DNA of 57,815 nucleotides from Vulcanimicrobiaceae bacterium (GTDB lineage: Bacteria > Vulcanimicrobiota > Vulcanimicrobiia > Vulcanimicrobiales > Vulcanimicrobiaceae), in contig DATCDS010000115.1 of assembly GCA_036510515.1 (NCBI GenBank), positions 1-57,815 on the forward strand, read 5' to 3'. Position numbers and translations under genes: made by a program. Shown here one piece after another: positions 30,599 through 32,879 of the stretch (positions are counted from its first letter, which is position 1; the number at the start of each line of letters is the position of its first letter). The notes under the pieces were generated by a model that was not told the origin of the DNA, did not search any database, and saw nothing but the letters and a program-made list of their open reading frames with translations.

Positions 30599-30903
30599 AT
30601 GCGCGTTGCGATTCTTTTGCTCTGCTTTGCCTTCGCGATGGGGCCCCGGCGCCCGCATATCCGGGATACTGTCAGATCGAAGTTGTGAACGACAGTCATA
30701 AAAGCATCACGGTGCACGTCACGTTAGACGACGGCACGCCGGTCGCATTTCAAATGCAGCGGTACGACAGACCGCACTACGTCGATCTGTTCTATAGCGG
30801 GTACTGTCATTCTCACGCGTACGTGACGGTTTCCGATGGGAAACACGCCCTTTACAGCGGACACACGAACGTTCATTCGACCATCAGGATCGTGCCTTAC
30901 TAA
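30599..30903 (+). CDS. small secreted Cys-pair protein, family member P1 (frame-disrupted in a G4C4 run at about 30640-30647)
   Basis: AGGGAGG RBS. ATG 30599 gives signal peptide MRVAILLLCFAFA, then a stop. Frame -1 continues APAPAYPGYCQIEVVNDSHKSITVHVTLDD...GYCHSHAYVTV...IRIVPY (the ORF listed from 30685). Confidence 0.5.
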
Positions 30904-30996
30904 CCGGCAGAAATCGCCGGGCCTTGCCCGCCGTGGCGAGCAAAGGAGACCTCGCCATCTTCGGCGGGGTCTTTGCTTATGCTACTGGGCGGATAC

Positions 30997-31422
30997 TTAG
31001 CGGATGGTGATGTAGAAGCGGCTATCGCTTTGCAAGGTCGCCGTACGCTGCACGTGCCGGACCGTGCTGGTGTCGTGATAGACGGCCTCGACATCCACGA
31101 TGTGTTCGCCGGTGCAGTAGGTGTTGCGGTTCACCTGGGCGCGTACTTTGACGTCGCTCCAATCGACCGAGCCGGCGAAGTTCGCGCCCGCTTTCACAAA
31201 ACGGGGCTGGAGCGTACCGCTTGCGACCTGCCAGATCGGATGCTCGCCGCCCTCGCTGTGGTAGATGGTCACGTACGCGCAGAGGTTCGAGTTGTTGATG
31301 AACACCAAGCCCCCCATCCGTGCCGATGCGGGCTGCGGCGCGACCGCCAGGGCTAGCAGCGCCACGAACGCACCGAGAAGCAGCCGTCGCGAGCGCGCCG
31401 CGGCCGAACGAGAGATATTCAT
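30997..31422 (-). CDS. small secreted Cys-pair protein, family member P2
   Basis: AAGGAGA RBS and signal peptide (LLLGAFVALLALAVAPQPASA). Motifs LVFINNSNLCAYVTIY and DVKVRAQVNRNTYC are shared with P3, P4 and P6. Confidence 0.6.
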   Translation of the reverse strand: MNISRSAAARSRRLLLGAFVALLALAVAPQPASARMGGLVFINNSNLCAYVTIYHSEGGEHPIWQVASGTLQPRFVKAGANFAGSVDWSDVKVRAQVNRNTYCTGEHIVDVEAVYHDTSTVRHVQRTATLQSDSRFYITIR

Positions 31423-31556
31423 GGTACACGTCTCCTTGGAGGCGATGTGTGATTGCACGGGGAGAAACGCTGTCGAGCTAGCGGGCACGATTGATGTGCC
31501 TTTGCGACGGAGTCGGCGTTCCCTTGAACGAAGGTCTTCCGCAGGAGGGAGCTTTC

Positions 31557-31952
31557 ATGATACCAGCTTTTGCAACGGTCGCCTTCGTGGTAGCACTGGT
31601 CCAAACCACGGCGACGTCGGGGCGCTATTGCGGGCCGTCGGCCGATACGGCATCCATTCAGGCGCGCTTTCTCAAAGAACACGCCGGCGGGCCGCATCCG
31701 GTCAAGTTGTCCAACATCATGGCCATCGCCGCCTACTTTCCCGGCGGCGCCGGTCAGGTCGTATACGTGGGCGCGGGCATGGGCGTCGAATACTTTGCCC
31801 AGACCTCCGGTGGCTGGCGTTCCATCGGATATTCACCGCCATCGTTTTTCCGCAAGGACGCGCTGGCGTTTTTCAATCGTATGCTGGATTTGCGCGCGAA
31901 CGGCGGCAAGCAATGCGCGAATCCGAAGTTCGTGAACGTCGGCAGCGGCTAA
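31557..31952 (+). CDS. secreted hypothetical protein
   Basis: GGAGGGAG RBS and signal-like N-terminus MIPAFATVAFVVALVQTTA. Two Cys. No family recognised. Confidence 0.5.
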   Translation: MIPAFATVAFVVALVQTTATSGRYCGPSADTASIQARFLKEHAGGPHPVKLSNIMAIAAYFPGGAGQVVYVGAGMGVEYFAQTSGGWRSIGYSPPSFFRKDALAFFNRMLDLRANGGKQCANPKFVNVGSG

Positions 31953-31965
31953 ATGCCGCTGCCGA
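31939..31965. terminator. bidirectional stem-loop between convergent genes
   Basis: TCGGCAGCGGC-TAAAT-GCCGCTGCCGA, a perfect 11-bp stem. The TAA stop of the plus-strand gene sits in the loop. No long T-run. Confidence 0.55.
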
Positions 31966-31981
31966 CGTACTCACGACGAAC

Positions 31982-32423
31982 TCACCATGTGGCGGCGGTA
32001 GTGATGTTGCCGACGCCGTAGGCTCCGCCGTTGGCGCCATACAATTCGCAGTTGGCATCGTACTTCCAGAGGATCCGTTTATCCGCCGGCAGATTCTTGT
32101 TTTCATTCGCGCGGTCGGGATCGCCGCCGGAGCCGGAACATCCATTTGGACGGAATTCTGCGCGTACTTTGATTTCCGCGGGGACGGGGATGCCCGTGAA
32201 GTTCGTGAAGTCGGCGTTAACCGTTTCGCGCCTCCCGGCGGGCAGCCAACCCCACTTGATCTTCCCCCACGGGGTGGTCCAGCCGCCCGGTATAGACCGT
32301 AACCCACGCGCATCGTTGGGAGCCGTTTAAGATGTTCAAGGAAATCTGGGTGACGTTGGTGCCCGCGCTGCACGGCGCTGCGCATAGCAGCATCGCAAGG
32401 CCGACAAGTACGAGGTTCTTCAT
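31982..32423 (-). CDS. small secreted Cys-pair protein, family member P3 (frame-disrupted near 32288-32294)
   Basis: Signal peptide MKNLVLVGLAMLLCAAPCSA, then ISLNILNGSQRCAWVTVY. The listed frame then stops at 32217, but the +1 frame continues PGGWTTPWGKIKWGWLPAGRRETVNADF...EIKVRAEFRPNGCSGSG...NCELYGANGGAYGVGNITTAATW* (own translation). Confidence 0.5.
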
Positions 32424-32471
32424 CGTTCGCTCCTTGAAGAAAACTGTAAAAGAATGCTGGATTTCGATCGG

Positions 32472-32879
32472 CTATCCTTTGAGCGACGGTGGGCCGAAAT
32501 CCAGGTAGCATTTCCCCGTCTTTTCGTCGTAATAGCCCCTCGTCGAGCCCTTGCTGTCGATGGGAAAGGGCACCACGATCTGGATCGAAGTGTCGCATAC
32601 TTTATGGCCGCTCGCATTCACGTATTCAAAGCGGACGTGGTAATAGGACAAGCCGGCGTAGTTCCCCGACTCCCAGGTCCGTTTGGAGTTCCCGTCAACC
32701 CAGCCCCAGTCGAGGTTCCTCGTCTTTCCAAGGTCTTGAATCGTGATCCAGGCGCGGTAACTCGACATGTTATAGGTGATGATCCCGTAGCGCGCCTCGG
32801 CATGGAGGGGCGGAAGGAACGCGACGATCGCCAGCGTCAAAAGAATCGGGCGTAGGGCTATGCGCAAAATGGAAGGCAT
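32472..32879 (-). CDS. small secreted Cys-pair protein, family member P4
   Basis: GGAGG RBS and signal peptide MPSILRIALRPILLTLAIVAFLPPLHA. Family motifs GIITYNMSSYRAWITIQ and YYHVRFEYVNASGHKVC. Confidence 0.6.
   Translation of the reverse strand: MPSILRIALRPILLTLAIVAFLPPLHAEARYGIITYNMSSYRAWITIQDLGKTRNLDWGWVDGNSKRTWESGNYAGLSYYHVRFEYVNASGHKVCDTSIQIVVPFPIDSKGSTRGYYDEKTGKCYLDFGPPSLKG

Follow-up and report, generated by a model that had tools for sequence, protein, structure and literature searches.

What are the small secreted proteins with paired cysteines that are encoded just beyond two tandem islands in an uncultured soil bacterium, and are they relatives of one another at all? The question is raised by a contig of 57,815 nucleotides (nt) from a Vulcanimicrobiaceae bacterium (DATCDS010000115.1, assembly GCA_036510515.1), the whole of which is here called the window. 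An earlier note, made from its letters alone, had picked out six candidate paralogs, four of them packed into 2.3 kb. The answer reached here by computational comparison is that four of the six (g2, g3, g4 and g6) are, on the evidence of their sequences, paralogs of one domain family of about 100 residues that is absent from curated libraries. With a probability of roughly 0.45, that family is one of secreted, disulfide-stabilised, transthyretin-like domains acting as a ligand-binding module, the ligand most plausibly being a glycan. The features concerned, with their strands and the lengths of their products in amino acids (aa), are these:

30222-30267 (+): third copy of the 46-nt 3' end of tRNA-Asn, the distal att (attachment) repeat; edge of the two tandem islands that precede the cluster
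30599-30903 (+): g1, a small secreted-type open reading frame (ORF); a frameshift at a GGGGCCCC run near 30640 separates its signal peptide from the mature part
30997-31422 (-): g2, intact member, 141 aa (P0001); ribosome-binding site AAGGAGA; signal peptide ...APQPASA
31557-31952 (+): small secreted-type ORF between g2 and g3, 131 aa; ribosome-binding site AGGAGGGAG; two Cys; hydrophobic N-terminus; called as a gene in contig L025
31982-32423 (-): g3, member disrupted by a 1-nt frameshift near 32287-32292
32472-32879 (-): g4, intact member, 135 aa (P0036), of the 'WITIQDLGKTRNLDWG' subfamily; Cys 67+96 pair
38366-38728 (-): g5, a 120-aa signal-peptide protein with two Cys
40646-41080 (+): g6, intact member, 144 aa (P0035), of the 'AWCVAP' subfamily; Cys 27+61 pair and two extra Cys near the C-terminus

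One family in four of the six genes

Can a family be recognised where pairwise comparison is so weak? Between the mature parts BLAST joins g2 to g3 (E 2.7e-5) and g3 to g4 (E 0.047), and it gives g1 and g5 no match to the other window copies. Other comparisons speak more clearly. Motif 1, run as a pattern over the six-frame translation of the window, matches four times, in g2, g3, g4 and g6, versus not once in 200 shuffles, and in the same four genes motif 2 comes some 35-45 codons later, so that they share the signature N-x-[ST]-x(3-4)-[AV]-[WY]-[VI]-T-x-[YQ], then V-R-[AF]-[EQ]...C. The motifs read NNSNLCAYVTIY and VRAQVNRNTYC in g2, which belongs to the subfamily with Cys 11+61, and NGSQRCAWVTVY and VRAEFRPNGC in g3. 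Both motifs had been proposed from inspection as the mark of the group, and both persist when 211 domains are properly aligned. An alignment of the full-length copies with MAFFT had put motif 2 out of register, which was corrected by trimming and by including a bridging member from another locus, L002.

Family profiles were built from an alignment designated A6 and from the 211 aligned domains. In a scan of the window with the family hidden Markov model (HMM), g2 scores 1.9e-33, g4 3.3e-29, g6 5.9e-25 and the two pieces of g3 1e-12 and 1e-4; g3 with its frame reconstructed reaches 48 bits with a broader HMM and 98.5% with hhalign. The bridging member (L002 10400-10762), which was absent from the set from which the HMM was built, scores 3.5e-13; it adjoins an ortholog of g2, its sequence EIKVRAEVYRSGCNHPLAADFERSF is like both g3 and g6, and it bridges the subfamilies. 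Where sub-alignments free of signal peptides were compared with hhalign, g2-type joined g6-type with 90.6% probability (E 1.3e-6) and g4-type joined g6-type with a P of 2.4e-4; between g2-type and g4-type no direct match was found.

Of the six copies first proposed, g1 and g5 did not stand. The former gives E 1.1 in the window scan, 3.7 bits with the broader HMM and 6.9% in hhalign; the latter has no match to the family HMM, -0.7 bits with the broader one and 0.6% in hhalign. Both lack V-R-x-E and the W-x-T-x-Y strand, and their only likeness to the family is the common 'phi-x-phi-x-N-x-S/T' start of a hairpin. The supposed cluster of four paralogs in 2.3 kb is thereby reduced to three members (g2, g3 and g4), and of two further members suggested downstream g6 stays and g5 goes.

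Might the motifs nonetheless be a chance or compositional likeness of unrelated, beta-rich secreted proteins, with no family behind them? The feeble BLAST scores, of which only that for g2 and g3 is as low as 2.7e-5, the lack of a direct match between g2-type and g4-type profiles and the misaligned motif 2 all speak for it. Against this stand the contrast with the shuffles, the score of the independent L002 member, the 269 clusters found among 1.84 billion, residues that are 85-97% conserved over 211 domains and a single eight-stranded fold predicted for both g4 and g6. That there is no family at all is, then, very unlikely; chance likeness is refuted for g2, g3, g4 and g6, and it holds for g1 and g5 only.

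As for the rest of what had been seen in this part of the window, the small ORFs with signal-peptide-like N-termini are indeed preceded by good ribosome-binding sites, Shine-Dalgarno sequences having been found at them (AAGGAGA, AAGGAG, GGAGG and AGGGAGGA), and the first ATG of g1 at 30599 lies 332 nt past the distal tRNA-Asn repeat where about 330 had been given. The inventory had a gap. Five genes, each preceded by a strong Shine-Dalgarno sequence and each encoding a product with a hydrophobic start, make up the group beyond the distal repeat: g1, g2, the ORF at 31557-31952, which had been overlooked, g3 and g4. That ORF is unrelated to the family by profile comparison, and has no match in Pfam or NCBIfam.

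How widespread and how constrained is the family?

An exhaustive HMMER profile search of 1.84 billion cluster representatives returned 269 at E<=1e-3, and for 27 the match was as strong as E<=1e-10. Database relatives include 34 close ones of g2 in metagenomes, and a trimmed four-sequence profile reached relatives of g4 and g6; a word-based homolog search with g6 retrieved g6 alone. The named hosts are metagenome-assembled genomes of Candidatus Baltobacteraceae and Aquilonibacter (Eremiobacterota, alias Vulcanimicrobiota), Bryobacteraceae (Acidobacteriota), Bacteroidota, Usitatibacter and other beta- and alpha-proteobacteria, and they point, almost certainly, to Eremiobacterota for the bacterium of the window as well.

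Over the 211 domains the conservation of single columns is high: N6 90%, S/T8 84%, W13 82% (with Y in a further 15%), T15 97% and Y17 88% in the first part of the domain, and R53 97%, E55 89% (with Q in a further 9%), C61 78% and D68 85% (D or N 93%) in the second, where V52 and A54 are also conserved. The signature for the family as a whole is accordingly N-x-[ST]-x(3-4)-[AV]-[WY]-[VI]-T-x-Y ... V-R-A-E-V ... C ... D. That no Pfam family or domain of unknown function (DUF) bears it had been suspected, and searches of Pfam, NCBIfam, PHROGs, PADLOC and PDB sequences came back empty. In Pfam-A, NCBIfam, PHROGs and PADLOC there was no match to any window copy, g1 and g5 included; Pfam at E<=1 on 100 family domains gave no family common to more than three members; and two family profiles compared with all PDB sequences gave zero matches at E<=10. 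No description of the family was found in the literature. It is a real family, and one that is absent from the curated libraries.

Most of its proteins are 110-150 aa long, and about 20 carry two domains in tandem. In the genome of the window every copy stands alone as a gene, has a ribosome-binding site to itself and begins with a signal-peptide-like N-terminus. Elsewhere the domain is found fused to Ricin-B (P0086, P0174), WSC (P0067) and Tectonin (P0185) domains, in four of the approximately 190 proteins examined. Other members bear unannotated extensions, of which the C-terminal ones of L017, L018 and P0055 resemble bacterial Ig-like domains by eye, a resemblance that is unconfirmed, Pfam giving no family in P0055. 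Adjacent pairs of family genes are also seen in other genomes (L010 5791-6766 and L018 4778-6744), both proteins of the L018 pair having long C-terminal extensions.

Is the family evolving fast, as had been supposed along with local amplification and divergence? Divergent the window copies certainly are. Since its four members fall in three old subfamilies, with 20-31% identity and differing Cys pairs, they are ancient paralogs, and there has been no recent local amplification. The ratio of nonsynonymous to synonymous substitution rates (dN/dS) for g2 and its L001 ortholog, a single pair, is 0.25; the corresponding value with L002 was discarded as an indel shifts the alignment. A ratio of 0.25 means purifying selection, so that fast evolution was not borne out, and for this pair it indicates that the family genes would be functional.

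A predicted transthyretin-like sandwich

The AlphaFold2 model of g4, made with a 100-sequence alignment, is a confident one and has eight beta strands, with a mean predicted local distance difference test (pLDDT) of 94.2 and a predicted template-modelling score (pTM) of 0.86. That of g6, with 20 sequences, has a pLDDT of 80.3 and eight strands in the same order. When the g4 model was compared by Foldseek with the PDB, transthyretin and 5-hydroxyisourate hydrolases led, with template-modelling (TM) scores of 0.57-0.63, root-mean-square deviations of 4.5-5.1 A, 6-7% identity and E of 5e-3 to 1e-2; nothing was returned at E<=1e-3. Values of this order speak for a similar topology, and fall short of what would prove homology. 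Below them came generic sandwiches, part of thaumatin (TM 0.47-0.48) and perfringolysin at a TM of less than 0.3. The g6 model drew generic sandwiches alone (TM <0.46), and against BFVD the g4 model matched uncharacterised viral proteins only. HMM and structure searches had been named beforehand as what could overturn the idea of an unplaced family; they gave no confident match to a characterised one, the best Foldseek E being 5e-3 at a TM of about 0.6.

How close, then, is the kinship with transthyretin? The transthyretin and 5-hydroxyisourate hydrolase family (PF00576; PDB 1ijn, 8uw4, 2g2n, 2h0e) has, like the new one, an eight-stranded sandwich of about 100-115 residues, the Foldseek probability is 1.0, and both families have exported as well as cytoplasmic members. 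PF00576 proteins are homotetramers with the site at the dimer-dimer interface, and their hallmarks are a C-terminal Y-R-G-S and a catalytic His/Arg. Unlike them, the new family has neither the YRGS motif nor the catalytic His, the window proteins ending ...FYITIR, ...GPPSLKG and ...FDLCK; its conserved residues are on other strands, and it would have a disulfide. With the low identity, a Foldseek E of about 5e-3, no Pfam match at E<=1 for the window proteins and 100 domains, and no match of the profiles in the PDB, the domain is, on these models, a new sequence family on an eight-stranded transthyretin-like (prealbumin-like) beta-sandwich, with a resemblance at the level of fold only.

A different likeness is to the thaumatin-like proteins (PF00314, which include the xylanase inhibitor TLXI), where a hairpin F-x-I-x-N-x-C-x-x-x-V-W is characteristic; the phi-x-phi-x-N-x-[CS]-x(3)-[VA]-W hairpin of the new family recalls it, and there is the partial Foldseek match already given. 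However, thaumatin-like proteins are about 200 aa, with eight disulfides (16 conserved Cys) and a larger sandwich with extra domains, in contrast to about 100 aa and 2-4 Cys in the family; the overlap is with part of the thaumatin fold only, and Pfam gave no match at E<=1.

A likely disulfide and two likely compartments

Signal peptides, with their A-x-A-like cleavage sites, were assigned by inspection and with the help of a hydropathy rule. A hydrophobic N-terminal extension precedes the domain in 134 of the 158 representatives, and nearly all domains that bear a signal peptide have a Cys pair. By alignment column the pairs are (11,61) in 63 domains, which is the g2 and g3 type, (27,61) in 46, the g6 type, (37,61) in at least 25, and (67,96) in 14, the g4 type. 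Six clear members without a signal peptide (P0088, P0097, P0098, P0114, P0137 and P0169) start directly with the domain, and have no Cys or one. The pairing of a Cys pair with a signal peptide, and its absence where the signal peptide is absent, supports a single disulfide in the exported members, and so agrees with what had been suggested from the window copies. It is likely that exported members have one disulfide, with one Cys position shifting between subfamilies, and from their N-termini they would go to the periplasm or beyond. The members without a signal peptide show, to judge by their sequences, that the domain would work in the cytoplasm without a disulfide.

The partner of Cys 61 is at column 11, 27 or 37 according to subfamily, and the family appears from its alignment to be a clean case of disulfide migration, with loss linked to compartment. 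The signal peptide of g2 has a twin-arginine-like S-R-R-L-L-L-G-A-F, the R-R of which is kept in most close orthologs, not in all. Export of g2 by the twin-arginine translocation (Tat) route was considered and dropped, since S-R-R-L-L-L is not in every ortholog (P0027 begins MKRITIAAL); Tat export is uncertain.

What might the domain do?

The most conserved residues offer the first clue. On strands 2 and 5, aliphatic residues that would face the core come between those of the conserved W-x-T-x-Y and R-x-E, and on strand 6 the conserved D would point to the polar face. Strands B, E and F of the transthyretin topology, which correspond to 2, 5 and 6, lie side by side in a single sheet. From this alternation and adjacency W/T/Y, R/E and D would be expected as one exposed aromatic-polar patch, and probably these near-invariant residues do form a single such patch on one sheet. 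It would bind a ligand, most plausibly a glycan, and the domain would then serve as a small module of lectin-like or carbohydrate-binding-like kind, whether by itself, as a tandem or attached to other lectin domains. Taken together, the putative patch, the tandem copies and the fusions to three kinds of lectin domain are best fitted by a ligand-binding module. Counted in its favour were the Ricin-B, WSC and Tectonin fusions, the tandems, the position of the family gene in L011 just downstream of genes for a TonB-type outer-membrane protein and a GH3 glycosidase, and a weak match to CBM_25 (E 2.5e-4) in one of 100 domains. Of the roles that had been suggested for the window copies (inhibitor, immunity protein, lectin or effector), only that of a lectin or ligand binder draws indirect support, and it does so from the fusions to lectin domains. 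Like carbohydrate-binding modules (CBMs) and small bacterial lectins of CBM20/25 type, the family has a small beta-sandwich, on one sheet of which conserved polar and aromatic residues would lie, and occurs singly, in tandem and beside lectin domains. CBMs usually sit next to catalytic domains; unlike them, the family has no catalytic domain in its Pfam-scanned proteins, and there is no consistent match to a CBM-family profile.

Several points weigh against a secreted, glycan-binding module. The lectin fusions are few, four in about 190 proteins, and in architectures of that kind the non-lectin part is often an effector rather than a second binding module. The CBM_25 match arose once in 100 queries, for which the family-wise expectation is about 0.03. 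The putative placing of the conserved residues on one face comes from strand alternation and a transthyretin-like topology; some members have no signal peptide, so the domain is not confined to the cell envelope; no homolog has a known function, the binding role being a prediction; and in nine distinct contexts examined no conserved gene neighbourhood was found, so that context lends no functional support. The linkages that were seen do not recur: genes for an M16 peptidase and a Met-zincin lie between g4 and g6 in the window, the g2 ortholog and a paralog of L002 come after an M28 peptidase, and in L011 there is the TonB and GH3 context just described.

Those peptidases bring to mind a periplasmic inhibitor that shields the cell from its own secreted metalloproteases, with the patch as the protease-binding surface. 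Inh/APRin proteins (PF02974) are exported proteins of Gram-negative bacteria with about 100 aa, eight strands and a single disulfide, and the size, strand number, signal peptide and single disulfide of the new family recall them. Window copies flank both the M16 gene (33009-35759) and the DUF4953 Met-zincin gene (35768-38338), and the M28 gene of L002 is similarly placed. Yet neither Inh nor any other inhibitor family was matched in Pfam at E<=1 with 100 members, none is among the top 50 Foldseek matches in the PDB, most other neighbourhoods are without a peptidase, the proximity to protease genes varying from genome to genome, and members that are cytoplasmic or fused to lectins fit poorly; an inhibitor is unlikely.

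The fusions admit of another interpretation, which is that lectin domains take to a cell surface an effector, with toxicity or some other activity, in the form of this domain, and that its stand-alone copies hit competitors or hosts. Ricin-B, WSC and Tectonin architectures do recall lectin-targeted toxins, and several divergent paralogs per genome, pseudogenised copies and a site beside integrated islands are typical of accessory functions. But an effector of only about 100 aa of plain beta-sandwich, under moderate purifying selection, without adjacent immunity-like or secretion-system genes in the neighbourhoods examined and without a match to any toxin family (the perfringolysin matches being those at TM <0.3) is hard to credit, and we regard it as improbable. 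Could the fold matches, which are headed by 5-hydroxyisourate hydrolases and transthyretin, be taken at their word, and the domain be a small enzyme with its active site on a sheet face or, as in those hydrolases, at an oligomer interface? Near-invariant T, R, E, D and N do resemble a catalytic set, and the hydrolases, like the family, include both exported and signal-peptide-less forms. Opposed to this are the lack of any sequence relation (6-7% identity, no transthyretin-family match in Pfam at E<=1), the absence from the family of two hydrolase features, the Y-R-G-S at the C-terminus and the His residues, the absence of purine-catabolism genes nearby in the contexts examined, and the fact that the conserved residues fall on strands 2, 5 and 6, which in the transthyretin topology form the sheet opposite that of the hydrolase active site. 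An enzyme of this sort is quite unlikely.

A ligand-binding module, most plausibly one for a glycan, remains the best fit. A wider statement, that this is a new glycan- or ligand-binding family (a lectin or CBM) or else a new minimal enzyme, using a W-T-Y / R-E / D site on a transthyretin-like sandwich, deployed by uncultured soil phyla in the envelope (disulfide-bonded) and the cytoplasm (Cys-free), and recruited beside ricin-B, WSC and tectonin domains, is offered tentatively, with the odds leaning somewhat against it in its entirety.

Broken copies

Two copies had been seen to be frame-disrupted, g1 and g3, and both disruptions are there. The N-terminal ORF of g3 is 32217-32423 (68 aa, P0050), its C-terminal part continuing in another frame to the stop at 31982. 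Are they errors of assembly? The stretch 30200-33100 is matched at 100% identity, both frameshifts included, in an independent 41.8-kb ENA contig, L025 (ERZ27294337), and its first 1.5 kb is also identical in L026 (JGI 3300001408) and L027 (Logan SRR3985524). The sequence of g1 is accordingly the same in all three and the frameshift of g3 the same in L025. With such identity in three other assemblies, assembly error was ruled out: the disruptions are not accidents of an assembler, and both g3 and g1, which is not related to it, look like genuine pseudogenes. The complete identity across L025, L026 and L027 also means that the same strain was sampled repeatedly.

Surroundings of the genes

The 46-nt 3' end of tRNA-Asn (19502-19576) is present three times, at 19530-19575, 22606-22651 and 30222-30267, from which two integrated islands in tandem are deduced. 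A 142-nt stretch just past the first repeat (19653-19794) is duplicated past the second (22692-22833). The islands have a lowered G+C content (0.49-0.60), and besides an integrase fragment they encode a TonB-dependent receptor of 1131 aa, an SRAP protein and a protein of the beta-lactamase family. The peptidase genes between the family copies, one for an insulinase-like M16 peptidase on the + strand and one for a DUF5117/DUF4953 Met-zincin on the - strand, are large, convergent and of secreted type.

In L001, another Eremiobacterota contig, beside the ortholog of g2, is a divergent pair of genes, 9164-9505 (+) and 9544-9894 (-), for small Cys-rich proteins with signal peptides (GRIWVNNKTSYSV... 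and REVTAKNDTPYTV...). They are alike, and unlike the family described here, and could represent a further family of small, secreted proteins that is yet to be placed.

Significance

Eremiobacterota (WPS-2), like the bacteria that neighbour them in soil, are abundant and encode unannotated secreted proteins in large numbers; the family has been seen here in metagenome-derived sequences only. The finding is at the level of a domain of unknown function, real and new to the databases, and it is no new kind of biological system. Should the patch prove to bind a glycan, the lectins or carbohydrate-binding proteins would gain a new family, of use in annotation and perhaps as a reagent; should the family inhibit the neighbouring peptidases, or act as an enzyme, the transthyretin-like fold would be seen in a new role. 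Either way, with a signature, some 270 clusters, a predicted fold, a disulfide logic and domain partners to define it, what was a hypothetical protein is now a testable object.

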